DNA from: a virus | Taxonomy: Duplodnaviria > Caudoviricetes | Virus record (IMG/VR): IMGVR_UViG_3300043672_000039 | Coordinates: 9,187 to 73,186 of that record | DNA: 64,000 nt | Direction: 5' to 3' (one strand) | Part shown: piece after piece, positions 6,678 through 62,305 of the stretch | Layout of the letters: every line of letters starts with the position of its first letter | Numbering within the stretch: the first letter of the stretch is position 1 | Notes under the pieces: generated by a model | Seen by the model: only the letters and a program-made list of their open reading frames with translations | Databases searched by the model: none | What the model was told of the DNA's origin: nothing | Position numbers and translations under genes: made by a program

Positions 6678-6686
6678 GTGACTGTT
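6678..6686 (+). promoter_or_regulatory. GTGACTGTT motif
   Basis: Intergenic, 17 nt before ATG 6704. Confidence 0.55.
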
Positions 6687-6703
6687 AGATATAGTGAACA
6701 ATT

Positions 6704-7042
6704 ATGAAAGATAAAGGAATTGATTTGGCGCTTCCGGGATTCTCCGGCGGCGAGTCTCCGCTCGCGGTCTCTGACCGGGCTCCGGAATACCCCACGCTGC
6801 ACTTAGAATTCATTGGTGACGATGCCATTGATTTTCCGAAAGACGGCACGGTAACTTTTCGGTATCACCGCGCGTCTGAGACCGAGTCCGACCGCAACGG
6901 AAAGGAACGCTGCTCCTATACTCTGGAAATTCAAAAACTGGTCTCTGTGGAAGCCGACAAGGACATCCGTCCTTCGAAACGCGACACCAGCACCGAGGAC
7001 AATCTCGATAAGCTGATGAAAGCCAAACAGGACAGTTATTGA
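6704..7042 (+). CDS. Hypothetical protein
   Basis: 112-aa ORF downstream of the motif. Confidence 0.6.
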   Translation: MKDKGIDLALPGFSGGESPLAVSDRAPEYPTLHLEFIGDDAIDFPKDGTVTFRYHRASETESDRNGKERCSYTLEIQKLVSVEADKDIRPSKRDTSTEDNLDKLMKAKQDSY

Positions 7043-7043
7043 C

Positions 7044-7601
7044 ATGACGAGGAAGGAACAAGTAAGAGAATGCTCTCGTCGTTGGTATTTTGCCAATAAG
7101 AAAAGGGCGAAATTTCTATGTCGTCGATGGAATAAAAGGAACAAAGAACGACTGCGGGAACTCCAACGAAATTGGAAACGCAAAAACAGGAAAAAATGTT
7201 CAGAAGCTACGCGTAGATGGCTGGACAAAAATACAATAAAGAATAGGGAAACCCATCGACGATATCTTCGTCAGCGTTGGAAAACCGATTTGTCTTTCCG
7301 ACTTTTGGTTACGTTACGAAATCGAATGCGACAAGCGTTGAAGAAGAACTATAAAAGTTCCGGAACAGAGCGATTGACGGGGTGTTCCATGCGGGAATTA
7401 AAACAGTATCTTGAATCCTTGTTTAGGCCCGGCATGACGTGGGAAAATTACGGTCCAGTTTGGCACATTGACCATCAAACCCCCTGCGTTAGATTTAATC
7501 TATCCCTGCCTGAACAGCAACGAAAGTGTTTTCATTTTACGAATCTACAGCCCCTATTTGCGAGCGAGAATCTCAGAAAGAATAAATATGTTTCGTGTTG
7601 A
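7044..7601 (+). CDS. HNH-type endonuclease with basic N-terminus
   Basis: MTWENYG..WHIDHQTPC...CFHFTNLQPL..SENLRK. Confidence 0.85.
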   Translation: MTRKEQVRECSRRWYFANKKRAKFLCRRWNKRNKERLRELQRNWKRKNRKKCSEATRRWLDKNTIKNRETHRRYLRQRWKTDLSFRLLVTLRNRMRQALKKNYKSSGTERLTGCSMRELKQYLESLFRPGMTWENYGPVWHIDHQTPCVRFNLSLPEQQRKCFHFTNLQPLFASENLRKNKYVSC

Positions 7602-8589
7602 TGATATAGCGGATGAGGCGAGAAAAATTATCGGGGTTTGCGACGATACAAAACTTTTCCGGTGGTGCGGCGATGCCGTTTCTATTGTCTCTAACAAAGC
7701 AGATTTGGAGGGATGGAAGGGGTATCTCGATATCTGCTCCGCCGGGTGTTCCTGTGAACAGGGCTCTGTCTGCAATAATCCTGCCGGGTGTGGGCGACGA
7801 TGTATTGCTCTGCCGCGAGAAGTCGAGACGGTAATCGGCGTCAATATCGCCGGGCAACCGGTGCTAGGGCGAGACCAGCTTTTTTCGTTCCATCTGAACG
7901 GCCCGGGAGATTTACGAAACTCTTGCGAATGGGCTTGGTCCGACAAAGGAAATTTTCACTGCACATACAAAGATTTGATTACCCCGGCGAAACTCGTGGC
8001 GTATCTTCAGACGCGCGAGGACAATGGCAAAGTAATGACGGTCTTCGGGTATGATGTCAACGGAAACGTTCTGCGCCGAACGGAGAACGGTGTCACGATG
8101 AACGGTTGGAATATTCCAATGATTTACGGAGTCGCGGTGCCGGGCGACGGAGCCCCCACGGTCGCGCGAATCACCGGACTTTACAAAGACATGACGGTTG
8201 GCAGCGTCCGACTCTCGACCATCGACGATTCTGGATCGACCGGCACGCTTCTTTCGGTTCTGGAGCCCGACGAAACTCTGCCGCAATACCGGCGAATTCA
8301 ACTCAATCGAAATTGCAATTGGGTTCGAATCGCATATCGAAAAAATGACCCAGTTTTTCATTCTCGGTGGGATCACGTTCCAATGAAAAGCAGGCTAGCA
8401 TTTTTGATTGCTATTACCGCAAGGAAAATGTATGCGGATTTGCAAATCCCGGAAGCGCACGCTTTCGAGGCCGACGCGGCTCGTATGGAAATTGAGGCTC
8501 AGCAGATGCGAGAAGCCCCGCTATTCCATCCCGTGCAGGTCGTGGACCTGAACAATATTAAAGACAAGAACGATTATCAAATTGTCTGA
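7588..8589 (+). CDS. Head-tail adaptor / tail tubular protein A-like
   Basis: Probable start ATG 7588 (MFRVDDIADEAR). Position immediately before the nozzle-like gene. Confidence 0.45.
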   Translation: MFRVDDIADEARKIIGVCDDTKLFRWCGDAVSIVSNKADLEGWKGYLDICSAGCSCEQGSVCNNPAGCGRRCIALPREVETVIGVNIAGQPVLGRDQLFSFHLNGPGDLRNSCEWAWSDKGNFHCTYKDLITPAKLVAYLQTREDNGKVMTVFGYDVNGNVLRRTENGVTMNGWNIPMIYGVAVPGDGAPTVARITGLYKDMTVGSVRLSTIDDSGSTGTLLSVLEPDETLPQYRRIQLNRNCNWVRIAYRKNDPVFHSRWDHVPMKSRLAFLIAITARKMYADLQIPEAHAFEADAARMEIEAQQMREAPLFHPVQVVDLNNIKDKNDYQIV

Positions 8590-8591
8590 CT

Positions 8592-10604
8592 ATGGCATCC
8601 GTCGCCGAACGTTTGATAGATTACGATGGAACGTTTTTTCGGGGGATGAAGTCGGATTCCTACCCCGGTCAACTTCCTCTCGGTTATTACTGGTCCGGAT
8701 TCAATACGCTGAATCTCGGCGGCTCGCTTTCTTGCCGACCCGGCTATCGCTGTTTGATTACTTTCCCGCAAGGAAATCTTCAAGGCTCCGCGATTTTCCG
8801 TCCGCAAATCGGTCTCGAACAAATGATGGTCGCGGTAGATGGCGTTATCTATGTTGCTGAGTGGCCGTTTTTGGAATTTCGAATTCTGCCCAATGTTCAG
8901 TTTTCGCCGCACGCCAAGCAAATTTATTGGCAGCTTACCACCCAGTCGGCGCGTCGAGTTTCTCCGGATGTATTTTCATCTGGAATTGAAGTCATTCCGC
9001 CGCGCGTCGTGATGTTCATGCAGGACGGGGGCAACACCGCGCCTGCGTGGTATGATGGGGCACAGTCCGGGCACATCCGCGACCGCGAATTCGAGACCCC
9101 GGCGGGCAGTGCAATGATGTGGGTCGGAGATAGGCTTTGGGTTGCAAAAAGCAATCAGGTCTTCGCGTCCGATATAGGAAATCCGTTCAGTTTCCGAGAA
9201 CAAGTTTATCTCGGTAGCAACACTTCATTTTATTTTGTCGGAGATGTCACCGCGATGGTTAAGACCCCGAGCATTGAGTCTCCGCAACTCATGGTGTTCA
9301 CTGACAGCAATGGATCGATTCTGCAAGCGAACATTCGCAATCGGGATTTGTGGCCGCAAACGGATAACTTCCAAATGGAAGTGATTCAGATCGGTTGCCC
9401 GAGTCAGAACGGGGTAATTTCTCATTATGGTCGCATCGTCTGGATGGCAAATCAGGGAATGATTTTCTTCGATCCCGCGACTTCCGGAAAGATTACATCC
9501 CGGCTACCGGTGCGAGATAATGAAATGCTCGTCAGCAAGATTCGTTTAAACGAAGACTTGAGCGGCGTAGCAATTGGTTCCTTCGGACAATTCTTGTGCG
9601 TTTCCGTTCCGGCAGAATCTCTTTTCAATAAGCATACGTGGGTCCTCAATCATGCCAGCTTGCAAACGCTGGAGGACGATTCTGGTCCGTCATGGGCGGG
9701 CTACTGGCTTGGAACCCGACCGGTGAATTGGCTCTATGGAGACATCGTGGGCACCGAACGAATTTTTCATGTGAGCGCGGACGAAGACGGGAATAACCGT
9801 CTGTGGGAAGCGTTCATTCCGGACCGGCTCGATAATGGTTGCCCGATTACTTGGGCGGTTGAGACCCGAGGCTATTTTGGGCAGACGACTCAGTCGCATA
9901 AAGTCCCGGGCTCTCGCTGTCGCATGGCATGGGCAGACGTTGCGTTGATCGGGATCGAGGAAGATTTGGACCTTGGAATTTTTTATGCTCCCGGGGCTCG
10001 CGGCGCTTATATACAAATTCTAAAGAAGCGACTTGAAGTCGAAAAAGGTAGTTTGAGTTTTGATCTTCAGATCGACATGACTACGGAATTGTTTGCGTTT
10101 AAAGCTCAGTCTCGAAAAGAACGAACGGAAGACGCAAATCAAATGTCGATGTCGGTGGAAACTGGGTCATGCGATTTGGAGAGCCCCGACAACGAAAACA
10201 TTGACGAGAGCTTCCAGCTTTTGATTGTGGCACACGGACCGGCAACGATTTACTACATCCGCCCGTTTGCGTTCGCGGTCTCCGAAGATTTCTCTGGTGA
10301 TCCGGATGCTTGCATCGACGAGATTCCATTCAATACGGTTCGGTTCGATGGCACCGGTGTCCGTGCTTCTGATCTTGCTGAAGCGACGTTGGCCTTATCG
10401 ACGCGACCTCTCGCGTATTACACTGCGAACAAAACGGAAATCGTCACGCAACTGGGTATGTCCGCTATCGGGACTGGATTCGCGGAAAGTATAGTCTCTC
10501 AAGAGGCGGCGGAGCGCGTAGCTCGAATCATCGCGATTAAGCAAGCGGAGTCAGAGCTTAAGCGCGACCTGCCGAAAACTCTATCTGTAGGAGAAGGATT
10601 CTAA
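8592..10604 (+). CDS. Tail nozzle / packaged-DNA stabilization protein-like
   Basis: 670 aa, beta-propeller-like (GDRLWVAK..QVFASDIGNP), podovirus gene order. Confidence 0.55.
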   Translation: MASVAERLIDYDGTFFRGMKSDSYPGQLPLGYYWSGFNTLNLGGSLSCRPGYRCLITFPQGNLQGSAIFRPQIGLEQMMVAVDGVIYVAEWPFLEFRILPNVQFSPHAKQIYWQLTTQSARRVSPDVFSSGIEVIPPRVVMFMQDGGNTAPAWYDGAQSGHIRDREFETPAGSAMMWVGDRLWVAKSNQVFASDIGNPFSFREQVYLGSNTSFYFVGDVTAMVKTPSIESPQLMVFTDSNGSILQANIRNRDLWPQTDNFQMEVIQIGCPSQNGVISHYGRIVWMANQGMIFFDPATSGKITSRLPVRDNEMLVSKIRLNEDLSGVAIGSFGQFLCVSVPAESLFNKHTWVLNHASLQTLEDDSGPSWAGYWLGTRPVNWLYGDIVGTERIFHVSADEDGNNRLWEAFIPDRLDNGCPITWAVETRGYFGQTTQSHKVPGSRCRMAWADVALIGIEEDLDLGIFYAPGARGAYIQILKKRLEVEKGSLSFDLQIDMTTELFAFKAQSRKERTEDANQMSMSVETGSCDLESPDNENIDESFQLLIVAHGPATIYYIRPFAFAVSEDFSGDPDACIDEIPFNTVRFDGTGVRASDLAEATLALSTRPLAYYTANKTEIVTQLGMSAIGTGFAESIVSQEAAERVARIIAIKQAESELKRDLPKTLSVGEGF

Positions 10605-12316
10605 TGCGTATCGTCATTGATCCTCTCTATCTCCGGCGTCCGAAGTTGAATTATGTTTCCCCTCCGGTTTGCGAAGCTATTTTTTCTGGCTCTGGATCGC
10701 CGATTATTATTCTCGATGATATCAGCAAGCTACCCGGACCGACTGGATTGGTTTTGGGTGGTCACGGTCAGGTTCGCTTGAGTTGGAATCGCTACCCCGG
10801 CGCATTGTGTTACAATGTTTACACTCTCGTTATTTCTCAAACGGAGCTTTCGTTCCCGTGTTCCGATATTCAAGACATCAGTCAAAGTGGAAGCTATGTG
10901 CTATTGTCGGAGTGTCATATCGATCCAACGATAGTTATTACGCAACCGGGATGCTATCGAATCTCGGCAATCACTGGTGACGGTGAATCCGATTTGAGTG
11001 ATCCGATTTGCACCTGCGAGTGCCCGGATTGTTTTTGTCCGGACGGCACGGAGTTTTATCCGGATTACGAGGAGTGTCTTTGCTCTCCGCAGTCTTGCCC
11101 CCCGGGACAGGTTTGGGACCCGACGATTTGTCAGTGCGTGGGTTGCGGCTCTCAGCAATGCGCCCCGAGTTTTATTCCGGACTACGCTGACCCGTGTAAC
11201 TGTATCCCGAGCCCCGGCGGACCGACGAACGTTTGTAACGAAGAACAGACCGCTACTTGCCCGGGTGATTCCGTTACCGTCCCTGCCGGAACGTTTTGCG
11301 TGCAAGCGCCGAATCGTTTGCCCGCGACGATTGCCGCCGCTCAAGCGCAAATGAATGCAGAGGCTCTAGCCGAAGCAGAATCAGAACTTGAGTGCGATGG
11401 ATGGAGAATTTGTAACTGGGATGCTTCAGTTCGCGCGGCGATAGCTGCCGGGTTAGCGTCCGCCGGATGCACGGGAAGTGTAGCTCCGGAATGGGATGGA
11501 GTCTTCGACAAGTCTTACTCTTTCGTTGTTGGCCCAATCAACGAGGTAAAATATTTCGACAATCAATCAATCCTCGGAAATGCAGTAGCGCCCTCTGAAT
11601 TCCCGGGGTATCCGGGCGGCAATTGGCAGGATATGTGTTTCACTCGGCTCTATTACAATGCCGCTTCCGGAACATGGACGCTCTCGATTGGTTGCGCGTT
11701 CGATTGCACGGGAAATCAATACGCGTGGGTCGGGGAGATGGTCAATAACGAATCTGCGAACCCGGGCGGGATTTATACACAGACTTCCGGATTTTCTTCC
11801 GGCCCAACTACGATTGAAGTCGTTCCCACTTCTGGTGGTCATTGCACGGGTTGCCAAGCTGTCCCGCAGAGCATTCAAAATACGGTGTTCGCGCAAGGTC
11901 CGTTTGGAGCGTTTCCAGCTTGCGGAAATTTCGCAATTACGAATGGCTCCGGAACATGGAGTCTTACTCAAAATCTCAGCACTTGCACGGAAAATTTTAT
12001 TGAGATAACCGGGCAGACTTGTAATCCGAATGAGAACCCTTATGCTCTTACGGTGGATATTCCGTGGGACGATTCCGGTAACGTCGCCGCCGGGGTCCAT
12101 ACCGTTCAATTTCAGCTTTCGTTCAACGGAAGTTTGGTGGACTCGGAGACGCGGGACTTGGCAACCGGACCGTTCACCCCCGTTCAATTGACCGCCCCGT
12201 TGCCGGTCGGTATTGTTACAATTCGAATCGCAGTAGTTTTCCAGTGCGTCCCGAGCCCAAGCGTGACGGCGAATAACCTCGGCCCATTGTTAATAACCCC
12301 CCTCACACCACCATAA
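10604..12316 (+). CDS. Cysteine-rich tail-associated protein
   Basis: FN3-like N-terminus, CxCxC-like repeats (CPPGQVWDPTICQC), about 34 Cys by manual count. Confidence 0.55.
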   Translation: MRIVIDPLYLRRPKLNYVSPPVCEAIFSGSGSPIIILDDISKLPGPTGLVLGGHGQVRLSWNRYPGALCYNVYTLVISQTELSFPCSDIQDISQSGSYVLLSECHIDPTIVITQPGCYRISAITGDGESDLSDPICTCECPDCFCPDGTEFYPDYEECLCSPQSCPPGQVWDPTICQCVGCGSQQCAPSFIPDYADPCNCIPSPGGPTNVCNEEQTATCPGDSVTVPAGTFCVQAPNRLPATIAAAQAQMNAEALAEAESELECDGWRICNWDASVRAAIAAGLASAGCTGSVAPEWDGVFDKSYSFVVGPINEVKYFDNQSILGNAVAPSEFPGYPGGNWQDMCFTRLYYNAASGTWTLSIGCAFDCTGNQYAWVGEMVNNESANPGGIYTQTSGFSSGPTTIEVVPTSGGHCTGCQAVPQSIQNTVFAQGPFGAFPACGNFAITNGSGTWSLTQNLSTCTENFIEITGQTCNPNENPYALTVDIPWDDSGNVAAGVHTVQFQLSFNGSLVDSETRDLATGPFTPVQLTAPLPVGIVTIRIAVVFQCVPSPSVTANNLGPLLITPLTPP

Positions 12317-12321
12317 AACAA

Positions 12322-12330
12322 GTGACTGTT
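12322..12330 (+). promoter_or_regulatory. GTGACTGTT motif
   Basis: Intergenic, 6 nt before ATG 12337. Confidence 0.7.
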
Positions 12331-12336
12331 TAATAT

Positions 12337-13161
12337 ATGGCACTAAAACCTACAAATCTTTACATTCAGATGGCACCGTTGCCCGCGACCTTCAAAGGGA
12401 GCCCGCAAGATTTCGCGGTTGCCATGGTGCAACGTATGAAAATTCTTTCGCCCAACGGAACGAATTTCATTTTCATTGGCGACGTTGAGCCTATTTCCAA
12501 TGTCGGTCCGTGGTTGCGCGGCGGCACTCAATGGTGGGTCTGGGATGAGAATATCAAGCGATATGTTCCTCTCGATATCTCCGCGTCCGAGACGCGATGG
12601 TATTGGATGGGCGCGAGCACCCCGACGAGCACTCCTCCGCAAGTGTGGCTGAAGACGACGAAGGACGCGACGGACCAAGACCCGAGCCATGGCGAGCCGA
12701 TTGGCTGGTATGTGTTCGATGGCACTACTTGGAATCCTTTTATCGGAATCGTGTTGAGCGGTTCGACTGCGGACCGTCCGACTGGCGGAGTTGAATATCA
12801 GCAGTATTATGACACGGATATCGCTGTCCTTATCTGGTGGGAGCGGGGGCAGTGGAGAACGGTTTCCGGCGTTCCCGGCGATATCAAATTTACTGTGTTT
12901 GAAGTGCTGACGGACGCTCTGCGGTTCAATCCCGGCTGGGAAGTTCTCGGTGCTGGCAATCAATCTTTTCGTGGACGTATTATCGTTCAAGCGGCGAAGG
13001 ATTCAGGAACGTCACCGGAAACGGTGCTTACGGTTGGGGCAAATATCACCCCAAGGCAAGCTCTAGAAACTTTTGGCGAAAGTGATGGGATCAAAATCGA
13101 TAATGCGTCCACTTTAAAATATCCCGGGACCCTCGCTTGCTGGACTCTGGTAAAAACATAA
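12337..13161 (+). CDS. Putative tail protein
   Basis: Trp-rich ORF in tail module. Confidence 0.5.
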   Translation: MALKPTNLYIQMAPLPATFKGSPQDFAVAMVQRMKILSPNGTNFIFIGDVEPISNVGPWLRGGTQWWVWDENIKRYVPLDISASETRWYWMGASTPTSTPPQVWLKTTKDATDQDPSHGEPIGWYVFDGTTWNPFIGIVLSGSTADRPTGGVEYQQYYDTDIAVLIWWERGQWRTVSGVPGDIKFTVFEVLTDALRFNPGWEVLGAGNQSFRGRIIVQAAKDSGTSPETVLTVGANITPRQALETFGESDGIKIDNASTLKYPGTLACWTLVKT

Positions 13162-13163
13162 AA

Positions 13164-13739: not shown

Positions 13740-13743
13740 ACGA

Positions 13744-14205
13744 GTGACTATTAGAAAAAGAAGCAGTGCGGTAGTCAAGCAACTTGAAGTGAACGATTTA
13801 TGGCCTGTGTTGAATCATCTGGTCGAGAACTTTCCGAGAAAGAAATTTCTCTCGGAACCGATCAACGTGGATTATCTCGCTTCGAGTTGGAGCAGCTTAA
13901 TGAAAAACGGCAGTGCGGTCGCATACGCAACCTTTTTAGATTCAAAGCCCTCTGGGGTCTTGCTCGGTTTGTTGACGCCGGACTTGCACAACGGGAAACT
14001 TCAGGGGGTAGAGTTTTTCTGGACCGGAAGCAACACGCTTCCCCTTTTGGATATGTTTGAAGCAGAATGCAAAGCTCGTGGATGTTACCGGGTGGTCGCC
14101 GGACTTTGGGGGCAAGCCATCGGGCCTCGGGCTCCGGTGTTGCGCCGATTTTATCGTAGCCGGGGGTATTCGCCAGAAGCGGAATCCTTTTCGAAAGTGT
14201 TGTAA
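13744..14205 (+). CDS. GNAT-family acetyltransferase-like protein
   Basis: VEFFW...LLDMFEAECKARGC...FYRSRGY. Probable GTG start at 13744. Confidence 0.65.
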   Translation: MTIRKRSSAVVKQLEVNDLWPVLNHLVENFPRKKFLSEPINVDYLASSWSSLMKNGSAVAYATFLDSKPSGVLLGLLTPDLHNGKLQGVEFFWTGSNTLPLLDMFEAECKARGCYRVVAGLWGQAIGPRAPVLRRFYRSRGYSPEAESFSKVL

Positions 14206-15870: not shown

Positions 15871-17370
15871 ATGGCTGGACTAGGCGGAGCACCCGCACAA
15901 CAAATTCAAGCTGGGATTGCGCCACAACCTTTGGTGACTGGTGCGCCCCCGTTGTCGCCCACACTGCTCAACGCTTTTCGTGACGGATTCATTACCGCCG
16001 ACGACATCTTTGAACGAATCAGCGCGACGACGAAGGCGAAGAAAAAGGCTGAGTTGCAAATGGCGACGGAAGCTACGTCTCCGGAATCAATTGAAGCTCG
16101 GAAACAGGTTGTAGCGGCTCAAGCGGCTCAAGCGCAGCTTGCACAACAGCAAGCCGCCGCTTCTGGTCCGCTCGTTGCTCCCCAAGCCGCACTGAGTGCC
16201 GCAGAGATTGCTGCAAAACAGCAGTTGCTTCCGGCGCAAACGGAACTGACCGCGCAGCAATTGGAAATGAATTCAAAGTTCATGTTCCCGAAAGCTTTGT
16301 ATGATATCGCAACCGAGCGGTTGAAGGTCGTCAACCCGGTGAAGCGAGTCGATCCGGCGAACGGAGCCGAATACACTCAGATGTTGAACGCGGCTGGTGA
16401 AGATGTGACCCCCGGTAGCCCGGCGCATGCCACTTACTCGCGCATTGCGCAAGGTGCTTTTTCTAATCTGTCTCCCGGTGGTTCGCCGCAAGTCGCCCCG
16501 AAAGCAACCGTTGCCCCGGCGGCACCGGTAGTCGCTCCGGCGGCTGCTCCTTCGGCTATGGTTACGCCGAATGTAGCTGCTCCTGTGACTGTTTCCCCGC
16601 TCGCGGGTAATCAAACTCGCGCGGCCTTGATGGAACATCCAGCTTTCTCCGGCGTCCCGGGTTCGACGATTGCGGCTATGTCTGATGCCGACGCTGCTGA
16701 TGCCCTCGTCAAAGCAAATCGTTCCGTTCCGCCGTCGCCCTCCGTCATTCAGCCGAAAGCTCCGTCAATGGCATACACTCCCGGAGTTGGATTGCAAACC
16801 GGAATGCGTTCGATTAAAGATCGGGCTCTCGTTCCGGCTGAAGGTGTGGAAAAACTCGCTTTGGCCTCGCAGGCCAAATCCACGGCGGACCGATTGCAGA
16901 AAGCATACGCGGATTTGATTCAGTCTGACCCTCAATTCACCGGACTCATCAACGGCACGATTACGAAGGCGGTAGCGGGGAAACGATGGAACGAAAAAGT
17001 TGCCGCCTTCGAACGTGAAGCTACAGCAATTCTCGCGCCAGTCGCCAAGGGAACCTATAATGAAACCGGCGTGCTGAGTGATAAAGATGTCGAGCGATAC
17101 AAAAATGTGTTGCCGGATTTGCGAGATACTCCTAGAGTGGGCAACGAGAAAATGCAACGGCTCATCAACGAAGTGAATTCGGCTTACTCGAACAAAATCG
17201 AAATGTGGAAGAAAGCGGGATACGATGTCGGTAATCTTGGTGCGGATAGCTCCGCCGCGACTGCGCCGACTCCCTCAGTCACCCCTGTTGCTGGCAAGCT
17301 GGTCACGATTCCCGGGCTCGGGACTGGCACCTATGACCCGGCAACCGGTCTTTTCACCCGGACGCAGTAA
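15871..17370 (+). CDS. Internal virion (ejection) protein
   Basis: Ala/Gln coiled-coil, Pro-rich linker, helical C-terminal domain. Confidence 0.6.
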   Translation: MAGLGGAPAQQIQAGIAPQPLVTGAPPLSPTLLNAFRDGFITADDIFERISATTKAKKKAELQMATEATSPESIEARKQVVAAQAAQAQLAQQQAAASGPLVAPQAALSAAEIAAKQQLLPAQTELTAQQLEMNSKFMFPKALYDIATERLKVVNPVKRVDPANGAEYTQMLNAAGEDVTPGSPAHATYSRIAQGAFSNLSPGGSPQVAPKATVAPAAPVVAPAAAPSAMVTPNVAAPVTVSPLAGNQTRAALMEHPAFSGVPGSTIAAMSDADAADALVKANRSVPPSPSVIQPKAPSMAYTPGVGLQTGMRSIKDRALVPAEGVEKLALASQAKSTADRLQKAYADLIQSDPQFTGLINGTITKAVAGKRWNEKVAAFEREATAILAPVAKGTYNETGVLSDKDVERYKNVLPDLRDTPRVGNEKMQRLINEVNSAYSNKIEMWKKAGYDVGNLGADSSAATAPTPSVTPVAGKLVTIPGLGTGTYDPATGLFTRTQ

Positions 17371-24641: not shown

Positions 24642-24803
24642 ATGAAATACAAAATTCTGAATTGGTCGCCTCTGCTCCTGTTGCTGTCTCTGGTGCTCTT
24701 GGCGGGGATTTTTGGGATGAAGTCGAAGCGCGTTCGCAAATTCGAGAAAACGCGCAGCCCGAAGTTTCAGCAAGACCCGGGGTCGAAAAGGAGTGACTGT
24801 TGA
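24642..24803 (+). CDS. Small single-TM protein (53 aa)
   Basis: MKYKILNWSPLLLLLSLVLLAGIFG then basic tail. An alternative open frame 24629..24796 also exists. Confidence 0.35.
   Translation: MKYKILNWSPLLLLLSLVLLAGIFGMKSKRVRKFEKTRSPKFQQDPGSKRSDC
24793..24801 (+). promoter_or_regulatory. GTGACTGTT motif
   Basis: 5 nt before ATG 24807. Confidence 0.65.
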
Positions 24804-27825: not shown

Positions 27826-28322
27826 ACATGCTTAAGATGTTTCTTGGCCCAATGCCAGAGCCAAATTGCGTCAATTGCATCATCCGAGAGGGTAACCGAT
27901 TTCCATCGCGGATACAACAAGTAAAGTGACGCCGCCATCATTTCTTTGGTAGCGCCGCCATGCCCGGTAGCAAATTTTTTCAAGGTGCCGGTAGGAACAC
28001 ATTCGATTATAACACCGCTCCGCGCACCAAAAGCGCACCACACCGCCGCCCGAAAGCTCGACCAAAGCTGAACCTGATAGGTTGAGGAAGCAAACTGCAC
28101 GTCTTCAAAAATCACTATATCAGCTTTACACTCATTCAGTTGAGAATAAAGGCTCATTACGCGCGGATCACATCTTCGAGTCATTCTCGTCTTACCGTAT
28201 TCAGTAATCATTTTACGAGATGCGAGTTTCCACGTTCCGGCATACTCCGGTTTTGAATCCATGTCTATCCCCATGGCGTAACCAGTATCGGTGCCTAAAT
28301 CAAGTGCGAGGATTTTCTTCAT
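27822..28322 (-). CDS. RuvC-like Holliday junction resolvase
   Basis: ILALDLG..TGYA, VIFED, LKKFATG.G.A.KE.M, DDAIDA. Confidence 0.85.
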   Translation of the reverse strand: MKKILALDLGTDTGYAMGIDMDSKPEYAGTWKLASRKMITEYGKTRMTRRCDPRVMSLYSQLNECKADIVIFEDVQFASSTYQVQLWSSFRAAVWCAFGARSGVIIECVPTGTLKKFATGHGGATKEMMAASLYLLYPRWKSVTLSDDAIDAIWLWHWAKKHLKHV

Positions 28323-29035
28323 TCGAGTTTCTTGCTGCGCATCAGTTCGTTTCGGATTTTGCGCAGCGCCTTTGAATGAGTGCTCTGAGCCGCCGAGCGG
28401 GTTGTCGCCGTCAGGTCTCCGATTTGCTGAAAGTTTAGGTGCCCCCGGTAAACTAAATCGATGACCATTTGTTCTTGCTCGGTAAGTTTTTTCTTGATGA
28501 TGTCTTCGACGATCTTCAGGCGTTCTCGAAAATCTATACTTCTGAAATCAGCTTCCTCATGGGGCTCAATTACGTGTTCGAAAGCTGGTTTGAAATTCCA
28601 ATCCTCATACTCGTTTAGCTCAAGTTCAGGGTCCGTAAGTCCACCGCCCGGAAGAAACACTGCCGCCCAACCATTGTGCAAATATTTTGTGGTTTCTTCC
28701 TCATGCAAGCTCGAATGTTTTACAACATCAATCGTTTTCCAATAGTCACTTATCTCACCACGGATGGCAATTTTTGAGAACGCCATGAAACGCAGCGTGC
28801 CGGGCCGGAAACGTTTTGCAGACCGGCGAAGCGCGAGATAGCACAGACTGAACAACTCGTCGTCAGCGATTTTGTTCCGGCACACGCGTTTCGAATAGAG
28901 AAAAGCGTCTCGCATGGTGTGCAGCACGAGCGAGTTTATGTCGTCATCGTTCTTGTCGTGCTGGATTTTGCGGGCGAGATCGAATTCCTGATCGCGCGTG
29001 AAAACATCGGGAGGCAGTGATTCAAGTAGCTTCAT
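28319..29035 (-). CDS. Phage RNA polymerase sigma factor (sigma70 family, group-3-like)
   Basis: Region 1.2 TRDQEFDLARKI, region 2 ELFS...AL..SAKRF...RF..F....IRGEI, region 4 LTEQEQMVI...FQQIG...ALRKIR. Start ATG 29035. Confidence 0.85.
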   Translation of the reverse strand: MKLLESLPPDVFTRDQEFDLARKIQHDKNDDDINSLVLHTMRDAFLYSKRVCRNKIADDELFSLCYLALRRSAKRFRPGTLRFMAFSKIAIRGEISDYWKTIDVVKHSSLHEEETTKYLHNGWAAVFLPGGGLTDPELELNEYEDWNFKPAFEHVIEPHEEADFRSIDFRERLKIVEDIIKKKLTEQEQMVIDLVYRGHLNFQQIGDLTATTRSAAQSTHSKALRKIRNELMRSKKLE

Positions 29036-34960: not shown

Positions 34961-34988
34961 AATATAACACAGATTGTTTAAACGTCAA
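34961..34988 (-). promoter_or_regulatory. sigma70-type promoter
   Basis: TTGACG-N16-TATATT upstream of the SprT gene. Confidence 0.55.
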
Positions 34989-38692: not shown

Positions 38693-38701
38693 AACAGTCA
38701 C
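38693..38701 (-). promoter_or_regulatory. GTGACTGTT motif
   Basis: 7 nt before ATG 38685. Confidence 0.7.
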
Positions 38702-38779
38702 CTTTCCATTCTCCGGTGTCAATTTCATACTTCATCACCTTTCCCCGCCACGAAAAAGTAGCTCCACGGGAATAAAATT

Positions 38780-39091
38780 TCAGATCGCGACCCTGTCCCA
38801 TCGTTCCGGATAATATCGGCCCCAATACCAGTCGGCTATGGTGTCGAGCGTGCCGTAACAGTGCCCGCGATGGACCTGACCGTAAGCTTTGATCCCGAAG
38901 ATTTCGCCGGTCGCGTTGTCCACCATGAATTTCCCGGAAGTTCCCCGGTCAACTTTGGTGAATTTCCGCCCCGGGCGGATGTGAGATTTGGTGTTGATTT
39001 GATTCGCTTCGCAGTTCACGTCCGAGAGGACGAGTTGCGCGAGCCCATGGCGTTCGACGAGATCGGCGAAGGCTTGAAGTTTTTCTTTCAT
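38780..39091 (-). CDS. Hypothetical early protein
   Basis: KFTKVD..SGKFMVD..TGEIFGIKAYG. Confidence 0.65.
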   Translation of the reverse strand: MKEKLQAFADLVERHGLAQLVLSDVNCEANQINTKSHIRPGRKFTKVDRGTSGKFMVDNATGEIFGIKAYGQVHRGHCYGTLDTIADWYWGRYYPERWDRVAI

Positions 39092-39097
39092 ATTGGT

Positions 39098-39125
39098 AAG
39101 ATAGCAGAACGGCGTCGGTTGTCAA
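39098..39125 (-). promoter_or_regulatory. sigma70-type promoter, leaderless
   Basis: TTGACA-N16-TATCTT (TG extension), then N6-ATG 39091. Confidence 0.75.
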
Positions 39126-39514
39126 ATCGATTTTACGGAATCGTTCATTTCTTGCGCATAATCCGCGATGTTGGCGGCGTCCCATCCCGCGAGCCATGCC
39201 ATCATGTTCCGCTCGTTACGAGGAAAAACCTCCGGCATGTGCGCAATCGTCACGCGGGGCAGGCCAGCGCCCCATGCGGCGGCACCGGCTTGAGTCGCCC
39301 GGACCATTACGCGGTTCCCGGCGAGCATCGAGACGAATCGAATACCGGCTTCCGAAAGCTGCACTAGCGCGGTATCAGAGCACCCGTCAAGCAGGGTGGA
39401 AAGCTCCTCATGTTTCGAGACGGGAAAAGTGGTAAACTGCGAGAAGGCTTCGCGCAGCGCGTTCGTTTGCGCTTTCGAGAAGGTCGCCTCTTTGGTCATC
39501 GGTAGTAATTTCAT
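39122..39514 (-). CDS. Hypothetical early protein
   Basis: ORF directly under a sigma70 promoter. Confidence 0.65.
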   Translation of the reverse strand: MKLLPMTKEATFSKAQTNALREAFSQFTTFPVSKHEELSTLLDGCSDTALVQLSEAGIRFVSMLAGNRVMVRATQAGAAAWGAGLPRVTIAHMPEVFPRNERNMMAWLAGWDAANIADYAQEMNDSVKSI

Positions 39515-39520
39515 AAGGAG

Positions 39521-39549
39521 AAGATAACGTATCGGCGGTTAGTTGTCAA
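39521..39549 (-). promoter_or_regulatory. sigma70-type promoter, leaderless
   Basis: TTGACA-N17-TATCTT-N6-ATG 39514. Confidence 0.8.
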
Positions 39550-39773: not shown

Positions 39774-39995
39774 AAAATCAAAGCGCGATGAGGTAGTCCG
39801 GCCAGTTCTTCATGAGTGGACTGGCAATGATTGGGTGCCCATAGTGGTTTTTGCGAATTTTACCCGTAGATGTAAAGTTCGCTTTGGATTTCATGCACGG
39901 CGACAATTGTTGCTCGCGAGATTTGATAACCTCTCACAGCACATAACACATTTCGGAAATTTCACTTTAATTGTTTTCATAATTTTCATGCCCTC

Positions 39996-40024
39996 AAATT
40001 AGCATGGCGCTCAAACGTTGTCAA
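39996..40024 (-). promoter_or_regulatory. sigma70-type promoter, leaderless
   Basis: TTGACA-N17-TAATTT (TG extension), then N6-ATG 39989 of a 32-aa ORF. Confidence 0.75.
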
Positions 40025-49982: not shown

Positions 49983-49991
49983 AACAGTCAC
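49983..49991 (-). promoter_or_regulatory. GTGACTGTT motif
   Basis: 7 nt before ATG 49975. A TTGACA lies upstream, 17 nt before the GACTGT core. Confidence 0.7.
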
Positions 49992-50054
49992 CGGGGGAGT
50001 GGGTGATGTCAAGAACGAAATTGAAGATGCGTAGGCGAGTCGGCGTTTCGCCGT

Positions 50055-50299: not shown

Positions 50300-50308
50300 G
50301 TGACTGTT
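50300..50308 (+). promoter_or_regulatory. GTGACTGTT motif
   Basis: 6 nt before ATG 50315. Confidence 0.7.
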
Positions 50309-52567: not shown

Positions 52568-52576
52568 GTGACTGTT
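52568..52576 (+). promoter_or_regulatory. GTGACTGTT motif
   Basis: 7 nt before ATG 52584. Confidence 0.7.
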
Positions 52577-53975: not shown

Positions 53976-53984
53976 GTGACTGTT
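53976..53984 (+). promoter_or_regulatory. GTGACTGTT motif
   Basis: 7 nt before ATG 53992. Confidence 0.7.
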
Positions 53985-56252: not shown

Positions 56253-56443
56253 TTTCTTTTGATCACGATACTTTGGTCTTGATTGTAAATTATTTCGGTG
56301 GGGCATGAGCCGAACAATTTAATTGCGGCGTTGAATGCACTTCGTCGTGATCGTTTCCATTGGGTCACGGCGTGGTCGCGGATAATCGCCCAACGTTTCC
56401 AGTTTAGGTCTGTGCTCGGATAAATTGCGATTCTGTTAATCAT
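56249..56443 (-). CDS. Small hypothetical early protein
   Basis: Directly under a sigma70 promoter. Confidence 0.6.
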   Translation of the reverse strand: MINRIAIYPSTDLNWKRWAIIRDHAVTQWKRSRRSAFNAAIKLFGSCPTEIIYNQDQSIVIKRK

Positions 56444-56449
56444 GCCTTC

Positions 56450-56478
56450 AAATTAGCACATCGCCAAACTCTTGTCAA
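56450..56478 (-). promoter_or_regulatory. sigma70-type promoter, leaderless
   Basis: TTGACA-N17-TAATTT (TG extension), then N6-ATG 56443. Similar to the 39996 promoter. Confidence 0.8.
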
Positions 56479-56481: not shown

Positions 56482-56490
56482 GTGACTGTT
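56482..56490 (+). promoter_or_regulatory. GTGACTGTT motif
   Basis: 7 nt before ATG 56498. Confidence 0.7.
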
Positions 56491-57799: not shown

Positions 57800-58551
57800 A
57801 CGTATTTTCTTATGTCCGGGTTTCCGGGCTCTCGCAAACGGACAAAGATGGACCCCTCCGCCAGAGGGATTCTATTCAGACCTTTTGCAATAAACATCAG
57901 TTGCGTTTAAACGCAGAGTTTTTCGAAGAAGGGGTATCCGGCGAAGTCGATGCCATGGATCGCCCGAAGTTTGCCGACATGCTGGCGAAAATTGCGTTAT
58001 TCCGACGAACGGCGGAAGATACCCGTGGCACCTACGTTCGAGAAATTCTCGGGCACCCATTCGATATCGGGGCTATTGTTGTCGAGCGAATGGATCGGCT
58101 CGCGCGTGATTTGATGGTGTCTGAGTTTTTATTGCGCGAGTGCCGAAAGGTCGGAGTCAAAGTTTTCTGCGCAGATCAGGGCGAGCTAATCGATATGGCT
58201 TCCAATGAGGGAGACCCTACACGCAAAATGCTCCGGCAGATTCTCGGCGCTATCGCAGAATGGGATAAATCGGTCACGGTGCGAAAACTTCGCGCCGCTC
58301 GGCTCCGCCTTCGAAACAACGGGGTTCGATGCGACGGCAAGAAACCTTACGGGTTTTATCCGGGAGAAAAAGAAACCTACGCGAAAATCCGGGATTTGAA
58401 ATCCTCGGGGCTCAGTTTTTCAGAGATTGCTAAGTATCTGAATGCCGGGGGGTTGAAGACCCGGCACGGGAAAATCTGGACCAAGCAAATAGTAAACAAG
58501 ATGCACAACAAAAAAATTATTGTCGCTCCGCCGAAACCCCCCGACTGTTAG
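57796..58551 (+). CDS. Serine recombinase (resolvase/invertase-type with partial recombinase domain)
   Basis: YVRVS...Q, EEGVSG...DRP.F, VERMDRLARD, C-terminal IA..LN..G.KTR.G..W. GTG start 57796. Confidence 0.9.
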   Translation: MNVFSYVRVSGLSQTDKDGPLRQRDSIQTFCNKHQLRLNAEFFEEGVSGEVDAMDRPKFADMLAKIALFRRTAEDTRGTYVREILGHPFDIGAIVVERMDRLARDLMVSEFLLRECRKVGVKVFCADQGELIDMASNEGDPTRKMLRQILGAIAEWDKSVTVRKLRAARLRLRNNGVRCDGKKPYGFYPGEKETYAKIRDLKSSGLSFSEIAKYLNAGGLKTRHGKIWTKQIVNKMHNKKIIVAPPKPPDC

Positions 58552-58554: not shown

Positions 58555-59169
58555 ATGAACGACTTTGCTACGCTGAATGGGACAATTGTTGGAGCCTCTA
58601 TTGTTTTGCGCTGGAGTTTGGCGCACCTTTCTGAAGTCAACGGGAAAACCGTTGTCTCGAATACGGTGCAGCGGTCGCCGACCGGCGTAGAGCAGTGGGT
58701 AACTCTCGCCACATCGACCGGCGCAGATTTTGCCGGTGCGACTTATACTGATCGCGTCCCTGCCGAAGGGGATTTTCAATATCGGCTGGTGCTGATCGTC
58801 GGCATCGCGCCGCACACGGTCACTTTGCACTCGAACATAATTTCGGCGAACTTCGTCACTGCCGTAACATTGACCGGCTCCGTTTCCGGTAGTGTGGTCT
58901 CGCTCGATTGGGGTGGCGCTGGGAACGCGGTCGGGTATGTCGGAGAAGTGGAATCCGCGACCGTCGAACGCAGTGCCGACGCGGGAGTAACCTATTTTCC
59001 GGTGCGGACCCTCAGTGGTCGGCTGGCCTCGGCTTATTCCGAGTCGCTGTCGCAACCCGGCACGTATCTGTATCGGGTCAAAGTCTCGTTCGAGAATCCG
59101 GAGACCCCGGACGCCATTGGGCGTGATCAGGTGCTCACTTCGAATGTGGTCTCTTTGACCGTTTCTTAA
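58555..59169 (+). CDS. Protein with two FN3/Ig-like repeats
   Basis: Two L.G...G..V.L.W...V.RS...Y.D...G.Y.YR units. Variant motif CCGACTGTT 5 nt upstream. Confidence 0.65.
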   Translation: MNDFATLNGTIVGASIVLRWSLAHLSEVNGKTVVSNTVQRSPTGVEQWVTLATSTGADFAGATYTDRVPAEGDFQYRLVLIVGIAPHTVTLHSNIISANFVTAVTLTGSVSGSVVSLDWGGAGNAVGYVGEVESATVERSADAGVTYFPVRTLSGRLASAYSESLSQPGTYLYRVKVSFENPETPDAIGRDQVLTSNVVSLTVS

Positions 59170-59172: not shown

Positions 59173-59248
59173 TGCGGGATGGAGCAGTTGGTAGCTCGTT
59201 TGGCTCATAACCAAAAGGTCGAGGGTTCGAGTCCCTCTCCCGCTACCA
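59173..59248 (+). tRNA. tRNA-Met(CAT), initiator type (fMet), encoded CCA
   Basis: 76-nt cloverleaf, unpaired 1:72 (T.T), A11:T24, anticodon loop CTCATAA. Confidence 0.92.
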
Positions 59249-59251: not shown

Positions 59252-59290
59252 CGCCCGGAAGGAATAAAACCCTTTCGGGCGTCTCTTTTT
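59252..59290 (+). terminator. Rho-independent terminator after tRNA
   Basis: CGCCCGGAAGG...CCTTTCGGGCG stem then TCTCTTTTT. Confidence 0.75.
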
Positions 59291-59292
59291 CG

Positions 59293-59301
59293 GTGACTGT
59301 T
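59293..59301 (+). promoter_or_regulatory. GTGACTGTT motif
   Basis: 7 nt before ATG 59309, just after the terminator, heads the terL operon. Confidence 0.75.
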
Positions 59302-59308
59302 AGATTGA

Positions 59309-59566
59309 ATGCAAGTTCTAACAGTTTACTCCCCCGGCAACTCCCATTTTTACCGCCAGTGGGCTAAAAGCTGGTCTGCGCAAGGCTGGAAGCCCGGAAT
59401 CATCACGCCGAAGGAAATCTCCCGGCACGGCTCCGCGAAGGCCGCAGCGAAGGCCCGGGGTGCCAAGCTGCTTTGCGCCGCAAACCTTTTCAACGTCTCC
59501 TTCCGGCCCCCGCGCAAGACGCCGGACCGAATTCCTAAATCTGCTGCCGTCCGGCTGGTTAAATGA
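59309..59566 (+). CDS. Hypothetical protein
   Basis: W..SW...GW.P motif, coupled to terL. Confidence 0.55.
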   Translation: MQVLTVYSPGNSHFYRQWAKSWSAQGWKPGIITPKEISRHGSAKAAAKARGAKLLCAANLFNVSFRPPRKTPDRIPKSAAVRLVK

Positions 59567-61485
59567 ACGCGCAAGAAAAAGAACTTGCCCGGCTGGTTGC
59601 CAAAAATGTTCACGCTCAAACTGCGTGGATCGCCGCGCAATATATCGCCGATTTTGCTCGCATCTCAATTAGCATTACCTCGGACACCAAGGAGTCGAAA
59701 TACGTTCCGATTCTGCAAAATTATTTGCATGTGCTGCTGGAGAATGACGGCATGGCGGAAGCCGCGCAAATCCTCTGGAGCCCGAACCAGTTTACGCCGG
59801 AGCCTCAATCGGTTCGCGACCTTTGGAAACTGTTCGACGAAACTTCTACCGGGCTCATCATGGGAGCCGCCGCGATGGGAAAATCTTTTTCTCTTGGCGT
59901 TCGATTATTCTTGGAATGGCTGCGCGACCCGGACTGGACGAGCGTCCGCGTGATTGGCCCTTCCGAAGATCATTTGGAGCAAAATCTTTTTTCGCATTTG
60001 GTGAGCTTGCATTCTCACGCGACGCTGCCCATGCCCGGGCAAATCGGAGATTTGTTCATCGGCATGGACCGGCGAAATCAGGTGTCTTCGATACGCGGCA
60101 TCGTAATTCCGAAAGGCAACAACAAGAAGGCCGGTCGTCTGCAAGGTGGGCACCGCAAGCCGCGATTGATGCCGCACCCGAAATTCGGACCGCTCTCTCG
60201 GATGTTTATTTTCGTGGACGAAATCGAAAACGTTCCGCAGGGCATCTGGACTGACGTGGACAACGTTATGTCTGAAATTGGCGACGGCGGGTTCAAAATT
60301 TTCGGCGCTTACAATCCTACGAATCTCGGCGACGAGGTTGCAAAGCGAGTCGAGCCCGAGTTCGGTTTCGAGAACCTGAATGAGGATGAACATTTTCGAT
60401 GGAAGTCAAAACGCGGCTGGGATGTGCTGAGACTCGATGGAGAAAAATCTGAGAACGTGATTCAGGGTCGCATTATATACCCCGGGCTTCAGAACAAAGT
60501 GGGCCTTGAGAAGATCGCGCTCGGCTCTGGTGGTCGCCAATCCGCCGGGTATATGACGATGGGGCGCGGCATGTATCCAAAACAGGGCACGGAAATCACG
60601 GTCATTCCGCCCGGAATGCTTCAGAGAATGCGTGGGGAGGTCATCTGGCTCGATACTCCGCAGCCTGTCGGCGCGACGGACCTTGCGCTCGACGGCGGCG
60701 ATGACGCAATTCAGACCTTCGGCAAGTGGGGGCTCGCGACAGGTGTTAAATTAATCCCGTCTCTTGAACATCCGGAAGGAAAAAAATTTATGTTCAAGAA
60801 CGAGAAGGGAGTCAGCACGCCGCGCTGGTGTCTGGAGGCAACGCGCCAGTTTGCGCTGCCCAAGGGAGACACGGTTGCGATGAAAAATTCCGTCATCGAC
60901 GTGAATAAAAAGGCTGGAGTGCGCCCGGAATTTTATGCGTGCGACCGAACTGGGCACGGAGCCGGAGTCGCAGACCTGATTAAGCATGACTGGTCGGCAG
61001 CAATCCACGATGTAAATTATTCTCAGTCTTCGAGCGAAGAAAAAATCATGCTGGAGGACTCGAAGACCTGCTCGGAACAATACGAACGCATGTTCACCGA
61101 ACTTTGGTTTGCACTTCGCGCGTGGGGAGAATTTAATTATCTCGTGCTACACCCCTCCCTCGACATGAGTAAGATAACTCAGCAGCTTACGCAACGCCGT
61201 TTTCGAATCAGCGGAGCCCGGACGAAGGTAGAATCGAAACGGGACTACGAATCGCGCGGTTTCGGATCGCCGAACGAGGCGGATTCACTCACGTTGCTCG
61301 TTCACGCAGCCCGGAAAGGCTCCGGCGCAACTCTCAGCATGCACGGGGAAGGCGTGATACCGTCTTCGACGTGGGATGATGAATGGCCTATGGACGGAAT
61401 GAATGGCGGTGCGAAGATCGACGTAACAAATCGTTCCGATTGGCTCGATGATCGCCCGGATTCAGATGCTTTGCCGATTTTATGA
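59563..61485 (+). CDS. terL: Terminase large subunit
   Basis: Walker A GAAAMGKS, Walker B IFVDE, GAYNP, RNase H-like DLALDGGD, DRTG.G, SPNEADS. Confidence 0.9.
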   Translation: MNAQEKELARLVAKNVHAQTAWIAAQYIADFARISISITSDTKESKYVPILQNYLHVLLENDGMAEAAQILWSPNQFTPEPQSVRDLWKLFDETSTGLIMGAAAMGKSFSLGVRLFLEWLRDPDWTSVRVIGPSEDHLEQNLFSHLVSLHSHATLPMPGQIGDLFIGMDRRNQVSSIRGIVIPKGNNKKAGRLQGGHRKPRLMPHPKFGPLSRMFIFVDEIENVPQGIWTDVDNVMSEIGDGGFKIFGAYNPTNLGDEVAKRVEPEFGFENLNEDEHFRWKSKRGWDVLRLDGEKSENVIQGRIIYPGLQNKVGLEKIALGSGGRQSAGYMTMGRGMYPKQGTEITVIPPGMLQRMRGEVIWLDTPQPVGATDLALDGGDDAIQTFGKWGLATGVKLIPSLEHPEGKKFMFKNEKGVSTPRWCLEATRQFALPKGDTVAMKNSVIDVNKKAGVRPEFYACDRTGHGAGVADLIKHDWSAAIHDVNYSQSSSEEKIMLEDSKTCSEQYERMFTELWFALRAWGEFNYLVLHPSLDMSKITQQLTQRRFRISGARTKVESKRDYESRGFGSPNEADSLTLLVHAARKGSGATLSMHGEGVIPSSTWDDEWPMDGMNGGAKIDVTNRSDWLDDRPDSDALPIL

Positions 61486-62054
61486 GACAGATAAACCGAA
61501 ATTTATTTCCGAAAGATGGGTTCGGATTCAAAGAATCGGATGGGGTCCGGATTGGCGCGGATACTTGGGCTGGGGTTATCGTTCGGGTCCGAAATTATCG
61601 CGCTCGAAACGGTTTTCCGCCCGGAAATCCGGAAGAAGAAGTAATGGCGCAGGCATGCAATCGCAATCCGGGATATTGCACGGACGAAAATGCCGCATAT
61701 ACTCATGCAGTCAGCCGCGCTTCGCTGAAAAATCGAGTCCTGCTTTGGTTTTTGGCGATGCGAAAGCGTAAAGCGGATGAGTCTATTCGTATAGTTTCGG
61801 ATCAGGATGCCCGAAACCGGGCGCAGGTCTGCGCGAGTTGCCCGCTCAACCAATCTTTGCCCGAAGGGTGTTCATCCTGTCGCGAAGCGATTGAAGAAAG
61901 CCGTAAACAACTCATCGGGAGCAGATTTGTCGATGCGCGAATCAATTCTTGTGCGGCGCTCGGCGAAGAATTGAACACAACTATCCATCTCGACCTTGTT
62001 CGCGTGGAAAACGGCTCGCTGCCGGGCCACTGTTGGAGAAAGCGAACATCGTGA
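61482..62054 (+). CDS. Cys-rich hypothetical protein
   Basis: RA.VC.SCP.N...C.SC...C...CW. Confidence 0.65.
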   Translation: MRQINRNLFPKDGFGFKESDGVRIGADTWAGVIVRVRNYRARNGFPPGNPEEEVMAQACNRNPGYCTDENAAYTHAVSRASLKNRVLLWFLAMRKRKADESIRIVSDQDARNRAQVCASCPLNQSLPEGCSSCREAIEESRKQLIGSRFVDARINSCAALGEELNTTIHLDLVRVENGSLPGHCWRKRTS

Positions 62055-62305
62055 TGCTATTTTTTCATTTTTTCTGGGCTTGGGCGCTAACTCGTTGGGC
62101 GAAGTTTCGCGGGTATGAGGTTTTGACGAGCATCGACGAGCTAGATCATCGTTTTCGGACGTGTGAGCCGTGCGAATTTTTCGAGAACGGATTTTGCAAC
62201 GCTTGCGGGTGCTTAGTGATGTCAAAAATTATGCTTTCGACCGAGAAATGCCCGAAAAATAAGTGGCAACGGGTATGGGTCAAGCGAGTGACTGTTAGGA
62301 AGTAG
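62051..62305 (+). CDS. Small Cys-rich protein
   Basis: R...C..CE.F....C..CGC....K....EKCP..KW. Confidence 0.65.
   Translation: MMLFFHFFWAWALTRWAKFRGYEVLTSIDELDHRFRTCEPCEFFENGFCNACGCLVMSKIMLSTEKCPKNKWQRVWVKRVTVRK
62288..62296 (+). promoter_or_regulatory. GTGACTGTT motif
   Basis: 8 nt before the GTG start of the HNH gene. Confidence 0.6.

Follow-up and report, generated by a model that had tools for sequence, protein, structure and literature searches.

A start-codon-adjacent 9-mer is the probable -10 region of promoters read by a FliA-like sigma factor in a tailed phage

Phage sigma factors with promoters of their own are already known, as are leaderless phage mRNAs; here we analyse a 64,000-nucleotide (nt) stretch of tailed-phage DNA (Duplodnaviria; Caudoviricetes), bases 9187-73186 of IMG/VR record IMGVR_UViG_3300043672_000039 (full length 73,186 bp), which encodes a sigma70-family protein and in which the 9-mer GTGACTGTT recurs just before start codons. 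One such factor, T4 gp55, lacks region 4 and depends on gp33 and the sliding clamp. The Thermus phages phiYS40 and P23-45 reportedly make leaderless middle and late transcripts. The closest published analogues of the protein studied here are phiEco32 gp36 and 7-11 gp47. phiEco32 gp36 reads middle and late promoters that consist of one element, tAATGTAtA, and among phiEco32 relatives promoter positions are kept while their sequences change together with the sigmas (PMC8948821). Phage 7-11 gp47 reads late promoters of the form GTAAtg-16-aCTA; transcription first gets to its gene by reading through from early sigma70 promoters, and a cognate promoter later raises expression (PMC8948821). The best structural model is sigma28 (FliA/WhiG, group 3), whose promoters read TAAA-N15-GCCGATAA (PMC12784957). 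In the sigma28 structure the -10 element spans -15 to -8 and includes G-12 and A-11; only A-11 is flipped, and there is no conservation at -7. Contacts to -12/-13 come from the residues at FliA positions 80, 86 and 87, R80 and D87 among them, and R97 reads the extended -10 (PMC12784957).

We consider it probable that GTGACTGTT is the -14 to -6 segment of a phage-specific sigma70-family promoter read by host core RNA polymerase with the phage's own FliA-like sigma, that the resulting mRNAs are near-leaderless, and that the genome carries a host-type early promoter class besides. The 9-mer occurs 12 times in the window (the whole 64,000-nt stretch, whose numbering we use unless a genome position is stated) and 13 times in the 73,186-bp genome, where dinucleotide shuffles lead one to expect 0.24 copies and never give more than 2. 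An ATG or GTG follows at 5-8 nt at 11 copies in the genome, against 0.02 expected over 300 shuffles. The coordinates and start-codon distances reported in the first-pass annotation of this DNA all proved correct. Plus-strand copies lie at 12322..12330 (6 nt before ATG 12337 of a virion-module gene of 274 amino acids (aa), in the 20-nt gap after the previous gene), 24793..24801 (5 nt before ATG 24807; 232 aa), 50300..50308 (6 nt before ATG 50315), 52568..52576 (7 nt before ATG 52584), 53976..53984 (7 nt before ATG 53992; 113 aa), 56482..56490 (7 nt before ATG 56498; 73 aa), 59293..59301 (7 nt before ATG 59309, an 85-aa gene followed by a 640-aa terminase-like gene) and 62288..62296 (8 nt before GTG 62305). 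The minus-strand copies, 38701-38693 and 49991-49983, each lie 7 nt before an ATG, at 49975 in the second case. A further plus-strand copy, 6678..6686, stands 17 nt before ATG 6704, and the 13th, at genome position 8015 outside the window, precedes the major capsid gene by ~135 nt, with no ATG next to it. The variant described before 58555 is also present: CCGACTGTT, at 58541..58549 (+), ends 5 nt before that ATG and has TTGTCG 17 bp upstream of its GACTGT.

Every exact copy is oriented with its downstream genes, and the majority lie in intergenic gaps at the head of gene strings; about 12 of roughly 100 genes bear one. The sole intragenic copy in the window, as previously noted, is at 16585..16593 (+). 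No start codon follows it, a -35 and the upstream A are both missing, and it is probably a chance or inactive occurrence. The preceding base is T there, and a purine in all 12 other genome copies. The copies are not restricted to tail, terminase and virion operons, as had been thought. GTGACTGTT also heads two HNH/EndoVII-like genes and both leftward replication operons: that from 49991, whose last gene is a helicase, and that from 38701, which comprises PD-(D/E)XK nuclease, PolA, primase-helicase and the sigma gene itself. Two starts are available after 38701 (38683-38692, minus strand), an ATG directly after the 9-mer that opens a 93-aa low-complexity open reading frame (ORF) and the ATG at 7 nt, which begins a basic ORF of 64 aa; the arrangement at the other sites makes this second frame the likelier gene.

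Three copies fix the register of the element. At 38701 (site 38693..38722; TTGACA at 38722-38717), at 49991 (site 49983..50012; TTGACA at 50012-50007) and at genome position 8015, TTGAC[AG] stands upstream of GACTGT with a spacing of exactly 17 bp, which is 3 of 13 copies against 0.007 expected. Because of this exact spacing, GACTGT is the -10 hexamer with A at -11, the 9-mer covers -14 to -6, and the preceding purine is at -15; TTGAC[AG]-17-GACTGT thus has the two-element layout of a sigma-dependent promoter, in which a -35 hexamer is separated by 16-18 bp from a -10 that carries A at -11. The remaining 10 of 13 copies lack a -35. The earlier statement that no -35 is shared therefore stands for most copies and fails for these three, and the view of the promoter as -10-only has to be given up: in this genome (G000) the canonical TTGACA, at 17 bp, is an optional feature, and in two related ones, G002 and G003, a usual one. 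An A/T-rich patch at -45 to -40, the position of an UP-element proximal subsite, has A at -44 in 11 of 12 sites and A/T at -41 in 12 of 12, and the -35-less promoters carry this patch. The site at 59293 follows a strong intrinsic terminator (59252..59281, plus strand; 11-bp stem with 8 G-C pairs and a T-run) that ends 11 nt before it; upstream of the other copies within 1-20000, terminator-like sites are no more frequent than in shuffles. The 17-bp -35, the UP-like patch, this terminator and the limitation to about 12 in 100 genes argue for a promoter rather than a ribosome-binding or RNA-processing role. The bases right after the 9-mer are commonly rrATT. We rejected TGT-TAGATT, read from the bases after the motif, as an extended -10, since the spacer to TTGACA would then measure 23 bp and transcription would begin within the ORF.

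The same register predicts where transcripts begin. With A-11 at motif position 4, +1 is calculated to lie 6 nt past the 9-mer, whose distance to the start codon is 5, 6, 7 or 8 nt, and purines are usually present at the predicted start positions. Transcripts from these promoters, which we call class II, should thus begin with the A of the ATG itself or 1-3 nt ahead of it, with a 5' untranslated region of 0-3 nt (mode ~2). On geometry, this agrees with the placement first proposed. Because the predicted leaders are ~12 nt at 6678 and ~130 nt at the capsid copy, the accurate wording would be leaderless or near-leaderless mRNAs.

A second class of leaderless promoters, canonical and host-type, was overlooked in the first-pass annotation and explains how the sigma could first be made. 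The arrangement TTGACA-16/17-TAnnnT-6 nt-ATG has four perfect instances in the genome, against 0.01 expected. These class I promoters are on the minus strand at 39987..40024 (17-bp spacer, TAATTT, ATG 39989), 39512..39549 (17 bp, TATCTT, ATG 39514; 130 aa), 39089..39125 (16 bp, TATCTT, ATG 39091; 103 aa) and 56441..56478 (17 bp, TAATTT, ATG 56443; 64 aa), the last being back to back with the class II promoter at 56482. A weaker candidate, a single pattern match, lies inside the sigma operon at 34961..34988 (minus strand; TTGACG-16-TATATT, leader ~45 nt). Similar host-type promoters are present in the related genomes G001 and G006. Since four perfect promoters of this kind coexist with the GACTGT sites, a canonical primary-sigma specificity distinct from GACTGT is in use. 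The genes behind the host-type promoters are small and their ORFs have no homologues in the relatives, which is usual for early genes. We infer that the host primary sigma probably uses class I promoters early in infection. Three of them, at 39125-40024, lie just upstream of the 38701-headed sigma operon and point the same way, and class I could plausibly start sigma expression.

In class I the A of the ATG is exactly 6 nt after TAnnnT, at the standard +1, and in class II it is 6-9 nt after GACTGT; the leaderless layout appears to be a general habit of this phage-host system. These findings suggest a host that translates leaderless mRNAs efficiently. In placing promoters so that many mRNAs begin at AUG, and in using -10-dominated sites without a -35, the phage would resemble phiYS40 and P23-45. 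Their promoters are reportedly read by a host sigmaA holoenzyme modified by phage proteins and not by a phage sigma; the motifs differ and the hosts are known.

The candidate reader of class II promoters is a 238-aa protein encoded at 28319..29035 (minus strand), whose position and region 2.3 sequence had been given correctly. It belongs to the sigma70 family (TIGR02937, 56.2 bits against a cut-off of 42.9, residues 33-231), with a Pfam Sigma70_r4 match of 31.3 bits (cut-off 24.1) and a match to PHROG 351, 'RNA polymerase sigma factor', at E 6e-11. Its best PDB matches are all FliA chains (E 6e-5, region 4 only). Following the FliA numbering of PMC12784957, the region 2.3/2.4 residues F86...I89 A90 I91 R92 G93...D97 align to FliA Y76, I79, R80, R82, G83 and D87; the pattern is F-x-x-aromatic-x-x-I-x-I-R-G...D, without the W433/W434 pair, and a variable, indel-rich stretch separates regions 2 and 4. 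The protein resembles sigma28 without being a member of that subfamily, whose cut-off score it does not reach. The long -10 element of sigma28 also provides a fit for a 9-bp element at -14 to -6 with A-11, although the promoter sequence differs and the -35 is TTGACA-like rather than TAAA.

The analogy with T4 gp55 that was first drawn does not survive. A phage-encoded sigma and short promoters limited to the -10 region, TATAAATA in the case of T4 late genes, are common ground; here the sigma possesses both region 2 and region 4, with FliA/WhiG as its nearest kin, a -35 is optional and an UP-like patch is present, and T4 late mRNAs are leadered. The phiEco32 system is closer in having a 9-bp, single-element, -35-less promoter specific to a phage sigma, although gp36 has no recognisable region 4, whereas the present sigma has one and some of its putative promoters have a -35. 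With 7-11 gp47 the likeness extends to the presence of region 4 in a phage sigma70-family factor, bipartite promoters with an ACT(A) core in the downstream element, starts (predicted in our case) a few bp from that element, and a sigma gene deep in a long operon, where host-sigma early promoters would act first and a cognate promoter later. In contrast to 7-11, the upstream element is a canonical and optional TTGACA, the conserved part is a 9-mer in the -10 region, and the promoters abut start codons and also head replication operons; tblastn of our sigma against 50,697 phage records, moreover, detected no sequence kinship. What is particular to this genome is the FliA-like sigma, the optional canonical -35 with its UP-like patch, the two leaderless classes side by side, and a lineage-specific -10 at orthologous sites.

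This last property emerged from related genomes. Searches with the 640-aa protein and the sigma yielded four further records: G001 (74.9 kb), the near-identical G002 (69.7 kb) and G003 (61.2 kb), and G006 (68.6 kb), which with G000 make four lineages. Viral contigs scanned with the sigma, by itself or as alignments, again yielded only five records in four lineages; a metagenome scan for more relatives gave no further record, and 33 sigma homologues were found in metagenomes. Each relative has a sigma orthologue next to its primase-helicase and PolA genes. Identity to the relatives is 35-38% for the sigma, 43-48% for the primase-helicase and 55% for PolA. GTGACTGTT is absent as a repeated motif from all four, and each lineage has its own version a few bases before start codons. 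In G001 it is GTAACTACTT (gGTAACTACTT); in G002 and G003, rGAGACTAYT (GAGACTAYT), usually with a TTGACA-like hexamer at 17 bp; in G006, GCACTAAT, often with TTGACN. ACTnnT is the core common to all. The match to TTGACA at 17 bp is 5-6 of 6 in most G002/G003 sites, and 5/6 or better in 6 of 10 G002 sites.

Several of these variants stand at orthologous sites. The orthologues of the gene at 24807 are preceded by GTGACTGT in G000, GTAACTAC in G001, GACCAT with a TTGTCG -35 in G002, and CACTAA in G006. The gene at 56498 has orthologues with the local variant in G002 (24355) and G006 (20384); in G001 only an aberrant form, TAGTCACTTAG, occurs, before a second, weaker homologue. A syntenic variant site precedes the orthologue of 12337 in G006 only, and GTAACTGCTTAG precedes that of 59309 in G001 only. 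The divergent pair 49991/50300 is matched in G002 by 18659-/18940+. G002 and G003 have identical sigmas and identical motifs. Across the four lineages the residues at FliA positions 80/86/87 are A/S/D, G/Y/R, G/R/N and Y/R/R, and the bases at -13/-12 are TG, TA, AG and GC. The search for co-variation that had been recommended thus gave a sigma orthologue and a private motif variant in each of the four lineages. These comparisons support the view that a GTGACTGTT-type motif travels with the phage sigma gene, a link that is correlative. Together with the -35 register, they also support the original proposal of a -10-type, sigma70-family element of non-primary specificity.

Two other sequences in G001 deserve mention. 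Its sole exact GTGACTGTT, the only one in the relatives, is at 30870-30878 (minus strand), where it overlaps the sigma stop codon and ends 2 nt before the next ATG, that of the orthologue of window 27822-28322. It could be a chance occurrence or an internal promoter. The G001 repeat GTTGCTCCGG was considered as a promoter and rejected, being a coding tandem repeat.

In the sequence of events that we propose, the host primary sigma would use the four class I promoters early, and the phage sigma would first be made by read-through from the three that lie upstream of its operon. Host core RNA polymerase carrying the phage sigma is the most likely reader of GTGACTGTT, with GACTGT as the melting hexamer and A at -11. 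The sigma would then reinforce its own operon through 38701 and turn on the remaining units.

Several observations weigh against this proposal. GTGACTGTT heads nearly all operons with no clear late set, and the temporal logic is therefore a guess. The Pfam Sigma70_r2 score of the sigma, 19.5, is just below the cut-off of 24, and TIGR02479, the FliA/WhiG subfamily model, gives 47.6 bits where its cut-off is 189.6. GACTGT and the ATG are 6-9 nt apart (mode 8), as compared with the exact 6 nt of the host-type class, so many class II transcripts may carry 1-3 extra bases, or the register may be different. Co-variation is based on just four independent lineages, and closely related genomes share sigma and motif by descent. 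Finally, the TTGACA-17-GACTAT promoters of G002 and G003 have A-11, A-8 and T-7, so the host primary sigma could read those promoters.

An alternative is that a host sigma reads the motif, either the primary sigma tolerating GACTGT or a host alternative factor, while the phage sigma serves some other purpose. GACTGT does retain A-11 and T-7, the flipped bases of the sigma70 -10; three copies and most G002/G003 sites have the canonical TTGACA at 17 bp; and virion genes and replication operons that look early are alike headed by the motif. Reading by a host sigma is conceivable for the copies with a -35 and for G002/G003. As a general account we nonetheless think it unlikely, given that the 10 -35-less copies offer a hexamer agreeing with TATAAT at only 2 of 6 positions, that nine bases are invariant within each phage and different in each relative, which is unexpected of a host consensus, and that canonical TAnnnT promoters form a separate class in the same genome.

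Recruitment of the host holoenzyme by a phage DNA-binding activator or sigma appropriator bound at GTGACTGTT, in the manner of T4 MotA/AsiA or the late activators of P2 and Mu, strikes us as a rather poor prospect. Most G000 proteins have no recognisable family and could include such a protein, and the motif is asymmetric and locked in orientation. Activator sites lie at or upstream of -35, however, whereas this element occupies the -10 position relative to the optional TTGACA with its 17-bp spacer. Downstream of the motif there is no usable primary-sigma -10 placed so that the transcript would retain the ATG, and a sigma gene is present that co-varies with the motif.

An unrecognised phage RNA polymerase, for example a domain of the 2419-aa virion protein that the genome encodes, is very improbable as the reader. 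An invariant short promoter near the transcription start is typical of phage RNA polymerases, and N4-like and crAss-like phages have giant virion proteins that are RNA polymerases. Against this, TTGACA at 17 bp is a sigma-dependent architecture, and the 743-aa neighbour of the sigma is a DUF5906 primase-helicase. The scanned proteins gave no RNA polymerase family match and no ORF has a DxDGD motif, a search that highly diverged polymerases could escape. That the motif acts in RNA, as a Shine-Dalgarno (SD) substitute, translational enhancer or processing site 5-8 nt before starts, is scarcely credible: the short distance to the start codon is indeed fixed, and SD-like 4-mers are only weakly enriched (before 23 of 102 genes, against 16% at random positions), but the motif always marks operon heads, the capsid copy is ~135 nt from any start, and the -35, UP-like patch and adjoining terminator are DNA-level features.

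If the pairing of the phage sigma with GTGACTGTT is right, the four lineages are natural specificity variants of a group-3-like sigma, with FliA positions 80, 86, 87 and 97 as candidate determinants; these would be of use in the study of -10 and extended -10 recognition and as orthogonal expression parts. The analysis also yields a testable transcription map, with ~13 phage-type and 4-5 host-type promoters, the operon heads and a route to sigma expression, for a phage group in which hardly any gene can be annotated and cultured relatives are lacking. A wider picture, which we offer tentatively and on balance do not favour, is that the whole clade lives on leaderless messages written in two codes: the canonical host code, for a few early genes, and the private code of a fast-evolving FliA-like sigma whose -10 is re-tuned in each lineage (GACTGT, AACTAC, GACTAY, CACTAA) through the residues that contact -12/-13. 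Were this true, the clade would provide a natural series of mutually orthogonal sigma/promoter pairs.

The G000 genome is complete, given its 251-bp direct terminal repeat (250/251 identical; genome 1-251 and 72936-73186, window 63750-64000). Its IMG/VR entry says linear, and the end of G001 is also repeated. GC content is 52%. Rightward genes run from about window 50300, over the contig ends, to 25505, and leftward genes from 49975 to 25669. Coding switches strand in the 324-bp gap (window 49976-50299) that separates the divergent class II promoters 49991(-) and 50300(+). No relative was found among 185,579 reference genomes with the sigma or the epimerase as query, and the 50,697 phage records gave no DNA match and only a weak terminase match. 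Family matches among the proteins are sparse: PolA (31706-33685), the helicase (40021-41466), the PD-(D/E)XK nuclease (36453-37649) and the primase-helicase that adjoins the sigma gene (29022-31253), besides the weak terminase-large-subunit match of the 640-aa protein. The two HNH/EndoVII-like genes, 52584-53216 (210 aa) and 62305-62880 (191 aa), are paralogues, each behind a class II promoter of its own, and three copies occur at different positions in G002. They have the look of free-standing, mobile endonuclease genes that travel with the phage promoter.

A tRNA-Met (CAT) gene lies at window 59173-59248, between the gene at 58555-59169 and the terminator and promoter at 59252-59301, and is present also in G001, G002 and G006. 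It has a U1-U72 mismatch in G000 and U1-A72 in the other three. We rejected it as an initiator tRNA, since the three G-C pairs of the bacterial initiator anticodon stem are absent in every copy; a role in leaderless initiation is possible but unsupported.

The palindrome GTTTAAAC, often extended to CGTTTAAACG, has 11 copies in the window against ~1 expected, at 1843, 9544, 19556, 32116, 34976, 40396, 45914, 50789, 55423, 57905 and 62875. One of them overlaps the spacer of the host-type candidate at 34988. Copies are mostly intragenic and fall in all three frames. GTTTAAAC is among the commonest 8-10-mers in G001 and G002, as is the 10-mer CGTTTAAACG in G003, and the palindrome is a DNA-level signal.

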